A stretch of 64,000 nucleotides of DNA from an uncultured Actinomycetes bacterium (GTDB lineage Bacteria; Actinomycetota; Thermoleophilia; UBA2241), in assembly GCA_963709345.1 (NCBI GenBank), contig CAVPVX010000007.1, positions 704,001 through 768,000 of the forward strand, read 5' to 3'. The notes under the pieces were generated by a model that saw only the letters and a list, made by a program, of their open reading frames with translations, was not told the origin of the DNA and did not search any database. Of the stretch, positions 2,363-8,671 are shown in pieces. How positions within the stretch are numbered: position 1 is the stretch's first letter; each line of letters begins with the position of its first letter. Position numbers and translations under genes: made by a program.

Positions 2363-2922
2363 TGCAGAGTACCGCGAGCCCGGTCACGACCCGCGATATC
2401 GCCGCCGCCGCCGTCTTCGCCGCGATGATGGCGGCGGGGGCCTACGTGGCCATCCCCGTCGGCTCCGTGCCGTTCACGCTCCAGACGCTCTTCGTGCTGC
2501 TGGCGGGGATGGCGCTCGGACCGCGACTCGGGGCTCTGAGCGTCGTCGCCTACCTGGGCCTCGGCCTGATCGCCCCCGTGTACGCCGGCGGCGCCTCGGG
2601 CCTCGGGGTGTTGCTCGGACCGACCGGCGGCTACCTCTGGGGGTTCATCCCGGCGGCGCTGGTGGCCGGCGCCATCGCCGGCGCCGGCCGGGCCTCGCTC
2701 CCGCGCCTGACGGCCGCCGGCCTCGCCGGCCTCTGCCCCATCTACGCCCTGGGCGCCCTGTGGCTGGCGCTGCAGCTGGGCGTCGGCCCGCGCTCCGCGT
2801 TGCTGCTGGGGGTGGCGCCCTTCGTGTGGGCGGACGTACTGAAGGCCGTGGCGGCGGCGCTCGCGGCGCGCGCGCTGGTCAGCCTGCCGCTGGATCTTCC
2901 CGCGCTGCAGAGAGACCGCTGA
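2362..2922 (+). CDS. bioY: Biotin transporter BioY (ECF S-component)
   Basis: VPFTLQTLFVLLAG and GPTGGYLWGF motifs; hydrophobic; next to birA. Confidence 0.95.
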   Translation: MQSTASPVTTRDIAAAAVFAAMMAAGAYVAIPVGSVPFTLQTLFVLLAGMALGPRLGALSVVAYLGLGLIAPVYAGGASGLGVLLGPTGGYLWGFIPAALVAGAIAGAGRASLPRLTAAGLAGLCPIYALGALWLALQLGVGPRSALLLGVAPFVWADVLKAVAAALAARALVSLPLDLPALQRDR

Positions 2923-4309
2923 CGTCGGCCAGCGCCTGGCCGCGCAGGCGCAGATTGATGCGGCCGCGCTCGTACTCGACCGTGAAGTCGGTGGAACTGC
3001 CGTCGCGGTAAGCGAGATTCTTGTCGCGAAGCACGCGCGCCAGCGCCTCGACGTACTTCTCATCCAGCGTCACGCCGCCCATCATGCGGAGCTCCTTGAG
3101 CGCCTCGAATGAGCTCCGCGCCGCGCGGTACGGGCGGTCTGACGTCATCGCGTGGTAGCTGTCCGCAACCGCGAGGATCTTGCTCAGCTCGGGGATCGCC
3201 TCGCCTTGGATCCCGTGCGGGTAGCCGCTGCCGTCGAGCCGCTCGTGGTGATAGCGGACGATGTCCGCCACCTCCTGGTACGCGGCCAGGTGCGAGAGCA
3301 CCTCCGCGCCCTTCTCCGGGTGCTGGCGGATGAACTGCCACTCCGCGTCGTCGAGCGCCGTCGCCTTGCGCAGGACCGCGTCGGGAACGCCCACTTTGCC
3401 GAGGTCGTGGAGCAGGCCGGCGAGGTGCAGCGCCTGCTCCTGCTCGTGAGGCAACTCGAGCACGGCGGCCATGTCGCGGCAGTACATGGCCACGGCCGCC
3501 GAATGCTGCGCCGTGTACTCGTCCTTGCTGTCGAGCAGCACCACCATGGCGGCGGCCAGGCCGATGTTCATCTCGAGGTACTGGTCGCTCAGCTCCGTCT
3601 GCCGGGCCACGTGCTCGCGCTCGCGCACCAGCAGCTTGAACATGTACTGGCTCGCGAACAGGGGGATGAACAGGAGTGCGACGGCGATGATGCCGGCGGC
3701 GGCGTAGAGCGCCGCGATCCCGAGGCCCAGCAGCAGCAGCACGCCCAGGGACCGGACGAAGGGCGGCATCTCCTCGCGCCAGAACGCGGCGAAGTGCCGC
3801 TTGTACTTGATGCGCATACCCAGGCTCAACAGCGCCAGGTTGGTCGCCTCGAAGACGACGGCCGTCGCCGCCCCCGCCACGATGAGCCCGAACGTCACCT
3901 CGTCGAGCTTCACGCCGAGCGGCCCCAGAAGAGCGTCGAACACCAACGAGGCGAGAAAGACGGAGACCACGAAGTTCGCGGTGTTGTAGACGACCACCAC
4001 TCGCGTGCTCTCGCGCCAGGCGCCCCACAGCCCGACGCCGATGGCGACGGCGATCGCCGGCAGGCGCCCGGTGAACATGATCGCCAGCAGGATCGGCAGA
4101 TTGAACGCCGCCAGGGTGACCCTGTCGGAGACCTCCACGGCCATCTCGTCGGCGATGATCGCCAGCACGAGGAAGACGGCGGCGTCGCGGATGGCGGCCG
4201 GTGAGAGCGGGATCGGACCGGGGAAGAAGGATGCGTACGCGGCCACGAACCCGGCGCACAGCGCCAGGCTCGTGGTGAGCACGCGGTAATTACGCTCGGC
4301 TATGGACAC
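2879..4309 (-). CDS. Membrane-anchored HD-GYP cyclic di-nucleotide phosphodiesterase with an N-terminal multi-TM sensor domain
   Basis: YTAQHS, LHDLGKVG, HHERLDGSGYP and DSYHAMTSDRPYR motifs; about 6-7 TM segments N-terminally; GTG 4309 preceded by GAGG (ORF track start 4351). Confidence 0.92.
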   Translation of the reverse strand: MSIAERNYRVLTTSLALCAGFVAAYASFFPGPIPLSPAAIRDAAVFLVLAIIADEMAVEVSDRVTLAAFNLPILLAIMFTGRLPAIAVAIGVGLWGAWRESTRVVVVYNTANFVVSVFLASLVFDALLGPLGVKLDEVTFGLIVAGAATAVVFEATNLALLSLGMRIKYKRHFAAFWREEMPPFVRSLGVLLLLGLGIAALYAAAGIIAVALLFIPLFASQYMFKLLVREREHVARQTELSDQYLEMNIGLAAAMVVLLDSKDEYTAQHSAAVAMYCRDMAAVLELPHEQEQALHLAGLLHDLGKVGVPDAVLRKATALDDAEWQFIRQHPEKGAEVLSHLAAYQEVADIVRYHHERLDGSGYPHGIQGEAIPELSKILAVADSYHAMTSDRPYRAARSSFEALKELRMMGGVTLDEKYVEALARVLRDKNLAYRDGSSTDFTVEYERGRINLRLRGQALADVSGLSAAREDPAAG

Positions 4310-4338
4310 GGCACCTCGCGGGGTGTGCAGTGCCCCGT

Positions 4339-4366
4339 CTATCGGCACCAAACCGGCAACGCTTGA
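4339..4366 (-). promoter_or_regulatory. sigma28 (FliA/WhiG)-like promoter upstream of the HD-GYP gene
   Basis: Minus strand TCAA-N16-GCCGATAG versus consensus TAAA-N15/16-GCCGATAA. Confidence 0.55.
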
Positions 4367-4370
4367 ACAG

Positions 4371-4451
4371 TCAGTGCATCTTGCTGCCGCCGCCGCTCGT
4401 GACGAGGGCGAACAGCAGGGACGCGAGTGTCTTTTCGATCTTCTTGCTCAT
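4371..4451 (-). CDS. 26-aa peptide MSKKIEKTLASLLFALVTSGGGSKMH (signal-peptide-like N-terminus, GGSKMH tail)
   Basis: ATG with GAGGT RBS about 6 nt upstream; basic N-terminus, hydrophobic core, then a C-terminal motif shared with the neighbouring peptide; below the ORF-track size cutoff. Confidence 0.8.
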   Translation of the reverse strand: MSKKIEKTLASLLFALVTSGGGSKMH

Positions 4452-4482
4452 GAGCGGACCTCAATCGATCGACAACTCGCGG

Positions 4483-4557
4483 TCAGTGCATCTTCCCGCC
4501 GAAACGGATGTGCATCTTGCCACCGGACCTGATGTGCATTTTTCCACCGAAGCGCAT
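4483..4557 (-). CDS. 24-aa tandem-repeat peptide MRFGGKMH-IRSGGKMH-IRFGGKMH
   Basis: Strong AGGAGG RBS 4 nt upstream of ATG; three 24-nt repeats differing mainly at synonymous positions (GGT GGA AAA / GGT GGC AAG / GGC GGG AAG). Confidence 0.8.
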   Translation of the reverse strand: MRFGGKMHIRSGGKMHIRFGGKMH

Positions 4558-4566
4558 GTTCCCTCC

Positions 4567-4593
4567 TAAAGGTTCTCGGCCTCATGCCGATAC
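4567..4593 (+). promoter_or_regulatory. sigma28-like promoter, divergent from the peptide genes
   Basis: TAAA (4567-4570)-N15-GCCGATAC (4586-4593), near-consensus. Confidence 0.6.
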
Positions 4594-4873
4594 ACAATGG
4601 TTGACAATCGTGCAGCGACTCTACGGAGACACGCCGGGTCGTGCCTAGCCAACGCATTTGGACATAGTGGGCAAGTCTCTCCGTCTCAGTTGCCATTTTG
4701 GACAACGCTTCCCGCTGCCGCCTGCATCGCCGCTCGCGCCGTCACCCGCGGACCGGGACATGCGACCCCGCATGTTGTAGGCTTCGTGCGCGGTCGCGCG
4801 GAGATCGGCCGCAGGGGCACGCCAGCGCGCCCGCCTCGCCCGAGTCGCGGCGCGCAGCAAGGGGGAACACACA

Positions 4874-7621: not shown

Positions 7622-8671
7622 TCAGAAGCGCCGGACCTCTCGGTACAGCGTGTCCCGCTGCACCGGCGTGCGGCCGGCGGCGCGAATGAGCCGCACCATC
7701 TCGTCCACGTCGCACTGGTTGCGCACGCCGGCGGCGGCGACGACGTTCTCCTCGATCATGGTGGAGCCCAGGTCGTTGGCGCCGAAGGCCAGCGCGACCT
7801 GCCCGAGCCTCAGGCCCTGCGTGACCCACGACGCCTGGATGTTCGGAACGTTGTCGAGGTAGACGCGGCTGACGGCCAGGAGCCGCAGGTAGTCGAAGCC
7901 GGTGGCGGGCGTGTGGCCGGCCGCGAGCTCCGTGTTGCCGGCCTGGAAGGTCCACGGGATGAAGGCGGTGAAGCCACCGGTCTCGTCCTGCAGGTCGCGG
8001 ATGCGACGCAGGTGCTCGACGCGCTCCGCCGGCGTATCCAGCGAGCCGAACATCATCGTCGCCGTGGTCTTCATGCCGAGGCCGTGCGCGACACGCATCA
8101 CGTCGAGCCAGGTGTCGGTGGGGATCTTGTGCGGGCTGATGGCGGTGCGCACCCTGTCGACGAGCACCTCGGCGCCGCCGCCGGGGACGCTGTCGAGACC
8201 GGCGGCGTGGAGGCGGCGCAGCGTCTCGTCCACGGTCAAGTCGCTCGTCTTGGCGAGGTGCGCGATCTCGGGTGGCGAGAGCGAGTGGATGTGGATGGGG
8301 TAGCGTGCCTTGATGCCGCTGAAGACACGCTCGAACCAGCAGATGTCGAGGTCCGGGTGCAAGCCGCCCTGCATCATGATCGCGGTGCCGCCGAGGGCGA
8401 GCGTCTCCTCGATCCTGCGGTGGATGTCATCCTCGGAGAGCAGGTAGCCCTCCCCGCTCCCCGGCTTCTTGTAGAAGGCGCAGAAGCGACAGCCGGAGAT
8501 GCAGTAGTCCGTGTAATTGATGTTGCGGTCGACGATGAAGGTGACGTCGTCGCCGGGGTGGAGGCGTCGACAGACGGTGTCGGCGCGGGCGCCCAGAGCC
8601 AGCAGATCGCCGCCCTCAAGCAGGGCGAGGGCCTCGGGGTCGGAGATCCGCCCTGGCGCCTGCTCGCTCAC
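7622..8671 (-). CDS. mqnC: Cyclic dehypoxanthine futalosine synthase (radical SAM)
   Basis: TFIVDRNINYTDYCISGCRFCAF, PGGGAEVL, FIPWTFQ and GANDLGSTMIEENVV. Confidence 0.93.
   Translation of the reverse strand: MSEQAPGRISDPEALALLEGGDLLALGARADTVCRRLHPGDDVTFIVDRNINYTDYCISGCRFCAFYKKPGSGEGYLLSEDDIHRRIEETLALGGTAIMMQGGLHPDLDICWFERVFSGIKARYPIHIHSLSPPEIAHLAKTSDLTVDETLRRLHAAGLDSVPGGGAEVLVDRVRTAISPHKIPTDTWLDVMRVAHGLGMKTTATMMFGSLDTPAERVEHLRRIRDLQDETGGFTAFIPWTFQAGNTELAAGHTPATGFDYLRLLAVSRVYLDNVPNIQASWVTQGLRLGQVALAFGANDLGSTMIEENVVAAAGVRNQCDVDEMVRLIRAAGRTPVQRDTLYREVRRF

Follow-up and report, generated by a model that had tools for sequence, protein, structure and literature searches.

The stretch of DNA analysed here, 64,000 nucleotides (nt) from an uncultured Actinomycetes bacterium of the class Thermoleophilia (contig CAVPVX010000007.1, positions 704,001 to 768,000; hereafter the window), carries on its minus strand a compact group of three co-directional genes: two very short open reading frames (ORFs), ORF-A and ORF-B, and a gene for a multi-helix membrane protein with an HD-GYP domain. 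The gap between ORF-A and ORF-B is 31 nt, and the enzyme gene follows ORF-B after 61 nt (Table 1). A preliminary description, made from the sequence alone, had reported two tandem short ORFs, each with its own ribosome-binding site, whose peptides share a Lys-Met-His (K-M-H) end, and had proposed that the peptide is the ligand of the membrane sensor encoded next to it. The arrangement was described correctly: the Shine-Dalgarno (SD) sequences AGGAGG and GAGG precede ORF-A and ORF-B, respectively, both peptides end in K-M-H followed directly by a stop codon, and KMH is found four times in about 190 nt.

ORF-A consists of three in-frame repeats of eight residues, each closing with K-M-H and the last one followed by TGA. 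Tandem Repeats Finder (TRF) resolves the region into 3.1 copies of a 24-nt unit (4486-4559), and another copy of this unit, 71% identical, forms the 3' end of ORF-B. ORF-B begins with a lysine-rich basic N-terminus, continues with an uncharged hydrophobic stretch and GGG, and ends with the tail that closes with K-M-H. In all six frames of the 3,110,482-base genome K-[MIL]-H before a stop is present only twice, at the ends of ORF-A and ORF-B, and chance is therefore excluded as an explanation of their shared ends. The related pattern G-x(0,1)-KMH occurs five times in the six frames, four of them at these two ORFs.

Orthologues of the enzyme with 48-94% identity were taken from a genome search (20 loci) and from a contig collection (53 loci, 52 of them relevant), the two sets being overlapping. 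As the preliminary description would predict, comparable short ORFs lie upstream of these homologues. ORF-B is present in 62 of the 66 orthologous upstream regions that reach far enough, as 46 distinct DNA and 31 distinct peptide sequences, and in 59 of these 62 ORF-A ends with [KR]-[MILV]-H and a stop. Entropy at the three codon positions of ORF-B is 0.58, 0.35 and 1.06, and the pooled ratio of nonsynonymous to synonymous polymorphism (pN/pS; 45 sequences and 990 pairs, the frameshifted L068 being left out) is 0.375 in frame as opposed to 1.10 and 2.02 in the shifted frames. Purifying selection acts on the ORF-B peptide over its whole length, and both ORF-A and ORF-B are real, conserved genes. 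Pfam and NCBIfam hold no family for either of them or for the phylum-wide peptides presented below, and returned merely weak matches to signal-sequence models; the match of Phr_nterm to the small peptide is likewise weak (E-value (E) 0.085). ORF-B does not resemble a first sensor helix split off from the enzyme gene, since hhalign of the two alignments gave a probability of 0.1. Complex prediction for sensor residues 1-235 with ORF-B scored 0.03 against a mark of 0.32, a value that falls outside the calibration because the partner has fewer than 30 residues, and that weighs neither for nor against the pair.

ORF-A is specific to one family of the class (f1). Among 44 distinct sequences it carries one repeat in 17, two in 11, three in 14 and four in 2. 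Its unit can be written as x-x-x-K-hydrophobic-H, where the hydrophobic position is M, I, L or V with codons of the form N-U-N, and the K and H codons change synonymously among orthologues. The shortest ORF-A has eight codons and a strong SD, with conservation limited to the last three residues before the stop. In three loci (L030, L039 and L018) the units are split into separate mini-ORFs, each with its own SD. The tail tripeptides of ORF-A and ORF-B are identical in 19 of 30 classes; when the rows with KMH in both are removed 8 of 19 still match, which was reached in 628 of 20000 permutations, uncorrected for relatedness. Internal repeats can be out of frame with their nucleotides kept (L003/L027, L006/L063, L064, L008/L036, L014/L046 and L012/L062), and in three of these cases (L003, L006 and L064) compensating indels put the last repeat back in frame. 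The best explanation for ORF-A is that it is a family-specific derivative of the ORF-B tail, with one to four copies of the motif minus the export signal. It may contribute additional tail copies by some route or serve as a translated leader.

The third gene of the group is shorter than its longest ORF, which begins with TTG at 4351. The conserved start is the GTG at 4309 behind GAGGTGCC, the 22 orthologues compared having GTG or TTG starts behind GAGGTACC- or GGGGTGCC-like boxes, and L011/L037 have an in-frame stop within 4351-4310. The membrane HD-GYP protein of the preliminary description was identified correctly. Its catalytic half matches Pfam HD_5 (PF13487) with 147.3 bits (cut-off 27.2, E 4.9e-43) and HD with 73.8 bits, and the translation contains LLHDLGK and HHERLDGSGYP, that is, the HD dyad and the HHExxDGxGYP motif. 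Residues H301, D302, H354, H355, E356, D359, G360, G362, Y363 and P364 are invariant in the 22 orthologues. Foldseek matched the AlphaFold 2 (AF2) model of this half, in which the predicted local distance difference test (pLDDT) is only moderate, to the HD-GYP structures 4mcw (E 2.4e-5), 4r8z and 9rbz. By its motifs the protein is a member of the HD-GYP phosphodiesterase family, and hydrolysis of cyclic di-GMP (c-di-GMP) is predicted for it.

The N-terminal half, residues about 1-210, is a MASE9-like membrane domain that a long helix connects to the HD-GYP domain. A search of the genome with the MASE9 family (PF20972) found only a paralogue (G000:C7:264066-264551, 26.2 bits), to which the membrane domain of the window protein is 31% identical (E 1.7e-11). 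The model of the membrane domain (pLDDT 86.2, predicted template modelling score 0.84) has helices at 3-28, 37-55, 70-79, 82-98, 103-128, 140-169 and from 173 onward; the modelled short pair 70-79/82-98 agrees with the intramembrane hairpin described for MASE9 in the accessible part of the published account. When the model was compared with 48,161 chains in VIA-align, the top 14 rows were all S-components of energy-coupling factor (ECF) transporters or CbiM/NikM (Z 10.6-14.8, root mean square deviation 2.9-4.3 A, with alignments of 152-189 residues that often take in the whole target), and the next row was MreD with Z 9.3. Helical bundles may reach Z 13-14 in VIA-align through arrangement alone; here a single family fills the top rows. 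The window protein has no match to an S-component Pfam family. We conclude from the model that the sensor domain has an ECF S-component-like fold, a likeness of fold only, from which a shared function does not follow. The outward-open pocket of S-components takes up ligands of a few hundred daltons, and a peptide of 3-6 residues would by analogy be in the size range of such ligands.

The association of small ORFs with such sensors extends beyond the class. A sample of 301 Actinomycetota genomes yielded 94 that encode MASE9, and we surveyed the 30 best-scoring bona fide MASE9 loci for ORFs of 20-34 amino acids with an SD, K or R in the first six residues, an 11-residue hydropathy of at least 2.3, and a small-Gly-small stretch followed by a short tail with W, Y, F or H. 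ORFs of this description were found in 15 of 29 upstream regions, in 1 of 29 opposite strands and in none of the 658 control windows from the same loci. A scan of the whole loci gave a like-built ORF of 23-32 amino acids at 18 of the 30, and two further loci have a similar ORF outside the rule (L154 and L174, the latter from an unpublished genome). Applied to the 3.1-Mb genome of the window, the rule gave two hits only (L179 and L180), which look like false positives, one of them being the end of a longer ORF. By output, 19 of the 30 MASE9 genes encode HD-GYP domains, 9 encode histidine-kinase modules and 2 nothing further; the small ORF accompanies both HD-GYP and histidine-kinase outputs, and the genes that have it span at least 8 families. 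In three loci (L160, L161 and L171) it is divergent from the MASE9 gene, with starts about 205-220 nt apart, and therefore cannot act only in cis. In three others, from genomes with 36-38% G+C (L157, L159 and L166), a MASE9-HD-GYP gene is preceded by a tandem of two or three identical copies of it, and every copy has an SD of its own.

The 53 distinct ORF-B-type peptides analysed share a common build. Their median length is 25 amino acids and the N-terminus is net positive in all 53. The uncharged run, the small-Gly-small stretch included, has 15-22 residues (median 17), and in 50 of the 53 the small-Gly-small stretch is followed by 3-6 residues. The tails contain an aromatic residue or His in 50 peptides, a basic residue in 48 and an acidic one in none; they vary between lineages while the rest of the peptide keeps its build.

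Within Thermoleophilia, 401 genomes were searched with an ORF-B profile, which gave strong matches (E <=3.5e-8) only in family f1, one per genome except for one genome with two, and none in the other 11 families. In f1 a strong match is present in 58 of the 63 genomes that hold an orthologue of the sensor, the other five having partial, weak or no matches. The sensor domain itself (234 amino acids) has orthologues in 68 of 79 f1 genomes and in 14 of 24 genomes of the sister family f6, and is rare elsewhere in the class. The f6 loci lack ORF-A, and in 12 of 13 there is a complete ORF of 25-28 codons with an ORF-B-like build and a strong SD, the thirteenth locus being truncated by the end of its contig. 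The tails of the f6 peptides are Trp-rich and not K-x-H, and the peptides fall within the rule fixed for the phylum-wide survey. Since their enzyme is orthologous and their peptides comply with the rule, f6 forms a bridge between ORF-B and the phylum-wide ORFs. In f6 (L115-L127) the stretch that separates the small ORF from the HD-GYP gene contains a promoter-like TTGCTATAAT box and a GTCGAT/ATCGAC inverted pair, so that the enzyme gene may have a promoter of its own there. Four further families of the class have homologues with 30-36% identity (L075-L081 and L128-L131) but no ORF-B-like gene beside them; some have ORFs of 5-6 codons behind strong SDs which are indistinguishable from chance.

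The MASE9 paralogue mentioned above belongs to a second locus with repeated tails. It is part of a MASE9-SpoIIE (PP2C) gene on the same contig outside the window (G000:C7:263610-265415), with an RsbW-like HATPase gene downstream of it. The end of a gene for a secreted subtilase (S8) overlaps its start (L148, G000:C7:261971-266232), and the C-terminus of this subtilase consists of pentapeptide repeats of the W-T-K-F-R type. The arrangement is present in 15 of 16 f1 loci, with 5-14 copies of W-T-K-(F/Y)-(R/K/A), and in the genome of the window the subtilase frame is interrupted, leaving three ORFs that overlap. A motif (W/G)-(T/S)-K-hydrophobic-(R/H) thus adjoins genes of MASE9 or MASE9-like sensors in three guises.

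The genes around the group in the window are bioY and birA, which converge on the HD-GYP gene, and two genes for major facilitator superfamily (MFS) transporters, which diverge from ORF-A (Table 1). This neighbourhood (luxR-type gene, birA, bioY, enzyme, ORF-B, ORF-A and two MFS genes) is conserved across the orthologous loci, and the neighbour genes of the window recur in 40 or more of them. Neither the window neighbourhood nor the conserved synteny includes a conserved modifying enzyme, protease, export or processing gene beside the ORFs, and there is no processing or export gene of the AgrB/ComAB type in the window locus. BioY is itself an ECF S-component and thus of the same fold class as the model of the HD-GYP sensor; its adjacency is probably a coincidence. 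Two exact copies of TTTGGACA are present on the plus strand between ORF-A and the MFS gene (4657-4664 and 4697-4704, 40 nt apart), and a TGTCCAA box that matches them is kept in relatives and may be a regulator site. The window also contains a radical-SAM gene with a CofH/MqnC C-terminal region (7622-8671, minus strand), with no apparent relation to the small ORFs, and an HD-GYP query matches at least 13 places in the genome, which is many for 3.1 Mb.

Table 1. Features of the locus, with positions in the window.
Feature	Position	Strand	Remarks
ORF-A (P0001, 24 amino acids + TGA)	4557..4483	minus	ATG start; AGGAGG SD 5 nt upstream
ORF-B (P0002, 26 amino acids + TGA)	4451..4371	minus	ATG start; GAGG SD 8 nt upstream
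Membrane HD-GYP gene, 476 amino acids	4309..2879	minus	GTG start, conserved in 22 orthologues
Leader 5' of ORF-A	4623..4558	minus	
Candidate -10 box TAGAGT	4618-4623	minus	assigned by eye
GTCAAC(C) box before ORF-A	4599-4605	minus	invariant
TATCGGCA box before ORF-A	4585-4592	minus	conserved
Spacer, ORF-B to HD-GYP gene	4370..4310	minus	
TTCAAGC box in spacer	4361-4367	minus	conserved
GCCGATAG box after ORF-B	4339-4346	minus	conserved
GC hairpin in spacer	4319-4337	minus	
SD GAGG of HD-GYP gene	4314-4317	minus	
bioY	2362-2922	plus	converges on HD-GYP gene
birA	1204-2244	plus	converges on HD-GYP gene
Two MFS transporter genes	upstream of ORF-A		divergent from ORF-A

The leader and the spacer contain conserved boxes. 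The GTCAAC(C)-N-TATCGGCA and GCCGATAG boxes are invariant or nearly so in 29 diverged leaders and complementary over 6-8 nt, and GCCGAT is invariant in all 29 aligned leaders. In RNAalifold, ATCGGC pairs with the downstream GCCGAT through six invariant pairs with no covariation, and the same pairing, whose boxes flank both ORFs, is present in the minimum free energy and centroid folds. A long-range helix around both ORFs was nevertheless rejected beyond this invariant 6-bp core (ATCGGC/GCCGAT): for the variable arms the duplex with the own partner has -13.92 kcal/mol and that with other partners -13.74 kcal/mol, with a mean z against shuffles of -0.53, and a CTTTAG/CTAAAG covariation apparent by eye failed when the variants were tabulated. 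A local hairpin at the GTCAAC(C)/TATCGGCA box appears, by eye, to covary. The whole-leader fold has a z-score of -0.84, Rfam returned noise alone for the leader at E up to 10, and neither a promoter (sigma-70 scan) nor a terminator was found in it. Five RNA-library contigs of 151-256 nt from close relatives (runs X1-X3, three sediment studies) fall on 4283-4582 and extend across ORF-A and ORF-B into the first bases of the enzyme gene, the X2 contig (4283-4539) bridging all three. Cover is confined to this interval, and its absence elsewhere is not readable as low expression of the enzyme gene. These contigs are compatible with a transcript through the leader and prove neither transcription nor translation.

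We consider that ORF-B probably acts in trans as a partner dedicated to the membrane sensor of the adjacent HD-GYP enzyme, either as the source of a tail that acts as a ligand or as a tethered subunit. This is the most economical reading because the pairing of small gene and sensor is independent of the output domain and of orientation, because the peptide is selected along its whole length, and because the gene or its tail has been repeatedly multiplied. A peptide of the ORF-B type, with its basic N-terminus, uncharged run, small-Gly-small stretch and basic or aromatic tail of 3-6 residues, would insert into the membrane with the N-terminus in and the C-terminus out. Signal peptidase could then remove the tail after the small-Gly-small stretch, or the tail could be left tethered to its helix; in either form it would fill the outward-open pocket of the S-component-like sensor. 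Occupancy of the pocket would set the activity of the cytoplasmic HD-GYP domain via the long connecting helix, so that breakdown of c-di-GMP would track the supply of peptide, while ORF-A would supply extra copies of the tail motif or, as a translated leader, tune how strongly ORF-B and the enzyme are expressed. In this scheme export, cleavage, binding and any influence on enzyme activity are steps that we infer. Of the peptide-sensor circuit proposed in the preliminary description, the part that stands is that the small genes are real, under selection and always found with this membrane HD-GYP gene, and that like-built genes lie near MASE9 genes whatever their output.

Several observations weigh against this partnership. 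The lack of an export signal leaves ORF-A as an unexplained part of the ligand scheme, and its out-of-frame repeats would also fit a constraint at the nucleotide level or assembly errors, the latter being possible because some of these assemblies also carry frameshifts in the enzyme gene. The rule used in the phylum-wide survey was written after examples had been seen, and 12 of the 30 MASE9 loci have no ORF that conforms to it. ORF-B itself falls short of it in hydropathy (2.14, threshold 2.3), and a hidden Markov model of 18 phylum-level peptides misses ORF-B (rank 369 of 2254, E 170), so that its tie to the phylum-wide ORFs is a likeness of build and position, homology not being demonstrated. 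The window protein, with 21.6 bits (E 2.3e-4), is below the 24.3-bit Pfam cut-off of MASE9 (PF20972) and is for this reason termed MASE9-like and not a MASE9 member. One f1 genome that is 100% complete (G006, locus L018) has the enzyme without ORF-B; it has two 8-codon ORFs that end with S-W-K-L-R, with strong SDs, about 100 nt apart. The co-occurrence within f1 says little, because the whole neighbourhood is conserved by descent. Finally, the tail need not be a ligand, since single-pass membrane proteins tend to carry basic and aromatic residues at the ends of their helices.

A narrower form of the partnership takes ORF-B to be a subunit of the sensor that stays in the membrane for good as a single-pass protein, like MgrB with PhoQ or CbiN with CbiM, with no released ligand and no signal between cells. 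ORF-B has the build of a small membrane protein whose interfacial residues are basic and aromatic, and no gene for processing or export is conserved alongside it. The top fold matches of the sensor include CbiM/NikM, which function with a small membrane partner. Against this form, an uncharged run of 15-22 residues (median 17) is closer in length to an export signal than to a stable span, and the tail motif recurs without a helix, in ORF-A and at the end of the secreted subtilase; also, tails differ by lineage while the build persists. The released-tail form, in which the tail would be a ligand of the pheromone or autocrine type as the preliminary description proposed, is favoured by a hydrophobic run that is short, by the small-Gly-small stretch and by copies of the tail that have no helix, and the subunit form by the absence of a linked export or processing gene and by tail residues that are ordinary at an interface. 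A subunit permanently embedded in the membrane fits the data about as well as a ligand, and we regard it as a serious possibility, if one short of probable.

It is less likely that ORF-A and ORF-B are purely cis-acting upstream ORFs (uORFs), where passage or pausing of the ribosome at K-hydrophobic-H-stop would remodel the leader RNA, and in this way set translation of the HD-GYP gene or survival of its transcript, and the peptides would have no function. The three genes of the window run in one direction at short distances, and an ORF-A of eight codons with a strong SD, conserved in its last three residues, follows the pattern of an arrest or leader peptide. In G006 the motif is K-L-R, which resembles the basic-x-basic arrest motif of macrolide-sensing leaders. 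The invariant ATCGGC and GCCGAT boxes flank both ORFs and pair in the folds, and the RNA-library contigs cover just the leader. Against such a role stand the conservation of ORF-B throughout and not merely at its end, the divergent orientation of like-built ORFs in three loci, and the TTGCTATAAT box that separates the small ORF from the enzyme gene in f6. The ORFs moreover go with MASE9 genes of differing outputs in at least 8 families, and outside its invariant core the long-range helix does not covary, in a leader with a z-score of -0.84 and no Rfam match. A purely cis-acting role is conceivable for ORF-A and unlikely for the peptide family as a whole.

That the two ORFs are precursors of a multi-core modified or metal-binding peptide akin to peptides that are made on ribosomes and modified after translation (RiPPs), unrelated to the HD-GYP enzyme, is very improbable: the core-like motif is repeated, with an invariant His and a frequent Met, and an HD-superfamily enzyme that modifies a RiPP precursor, recently shown according to the accessible text of PMC12186529, offers a precedent, but the ORFs have no conserved gene for a modifying enzyme, a protease or a dedicated exporter beside them (the neighbours bioY, birA and two MFS genes being kept by descent), the HD-GYP domain has the full canonical set of motifs, Met is replaced by I, L or V in many lineages and His is missing from the tails of other families.

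The dedicated partnership of ORF-B with its sensor has partial parallels in known systems. That the locus matches none of them, as the preliminary description had suspected, was borne out by Pfam, NCBIfam and the literature; no description of a small ORF paired with MASE9 or HD-GYP was found in the literature on HD-GYP, MASE9, HdgA, or small ORFs and c-di-GMP. In the Phr and SHP systems of Firmicutes (Rap/Phr and Rgg/SHP) a tiny gene beside the receptor gene encodes an export signal and a short C-terminal active part that varies between lineages. ORF-B likewise has an export-signal-like part and a short, lineage-variable tail and lies beside a sensor gene. The receptors of those systems are cytoplasmic RRNPP proteins reached by re-import, whereas here the sensor is a polytopic membrane protein with an HD-GYP, kinase or PP2C output, the host belongs to Actinomycetota, and the window locus has no linked protease, PptAB-type exporter or Opp gene. 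AgrD/AgrC and ComC/ComD share with our locus a small peptide gene beside a polytopic membrane receptor, and some of the MASE9 partners are histidine kinases. They differ in that here there is no equivalent of AgrB or ComAB and no indication of a thiolactone, the sensor is S-component-like and the output predicted in the window is hydrolysis of c-di-GMP and not phosphorylation.

Among small membrane modulators, MgrB-PhoQ, SafA-PhoQ, KdpF and CbiN-CbiM are similar in having fewer than 50 amino acids and a single hydrophobic helix and in lying beside a membrane protein, binding to which is here proposed; the hydrophobic run is shorter in our peptides, the tail has helix-free copies (ORF-A and the subtilase) and the gene is duplicated in tandem in some lineages. 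ORF-A is similar to leader peptides (TnaC, Erm leaders and SpeFL) since it is short, SD-driven, immediately upstream and conserved only beside its stop, whereas ORF-B is conserved throughout, the wider family is partly divergent and an alternative RNA structure is unsupported. With the ECF S-components (RibU, ThiT, FolT, BioY, PanT and CbiM/NikM) the window sensor shares its predicted fold, and it differs from them by the lack of a sequence-family match and by its fusion to a signalling domain.

The architecture of the enzyme is that of the MASE9-HD-GYP proteins, defined by Galperin and Chou (bioRxiv 10.1101/2021.11.05.467447), who, in the accessible text, proposed binding of a ligand within the membrane. 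According to the same text, members such as TM1467 of T. maritima and HdgA of S. venezuelae carry HD-GYP behind a membrane domain that probably includes an intramembrane hairpin; the window protein has this architecture and differs by its score below the Pfam cut-off. For HdgA the accessible text of PMC6205966 states that 'activating signals ... are missing'. The accessible parts of these two papers (bioRxiv 10.1101/2021.11.05.467447 and PMC6205966) make no mention of an accompanying small ORF or of an S-component-like fold.

Taken together, the mini-genes point to a so far undescribed peptide partner of an orphan sensor. It has long been asked to what the membrane-embedded MASE domains in c-di-GMP enzymes and kinases respond, and the accessible literature names no ligand for MASE9; the genetically linked mini-gene is a concrete candidate for the input of MASE9 sensors. 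More tentatively, MASE9 could be an S-component-derived receptor for ribosomal peptides of 3-6 residues, released from precursors that combine an export signal with the ligand. This would then be a signalling system widespread in Actinomycetota, and perhaps in other phyla, that feeds c-di-GMP turnover, histidine kinases and PP2C partner-switching, in which the tails would be pherotypes and dosage would be raised by tandem genes, by ORF-A and by the subtilase repeats. Such an extension is possible and, in our estimate, rather doubtful. To our knowledge, peptide pheromones are hardly known in Actinomycetota. If the partnership is true, a route from a peptide to a second messenger would be added for this phylum, the sensor domain would be linked to the ECF S-component fold, and genes of 23-32 codons, which are under the usual cut-offs of gene callers, would prove able to supply a missing half to signalling systems.

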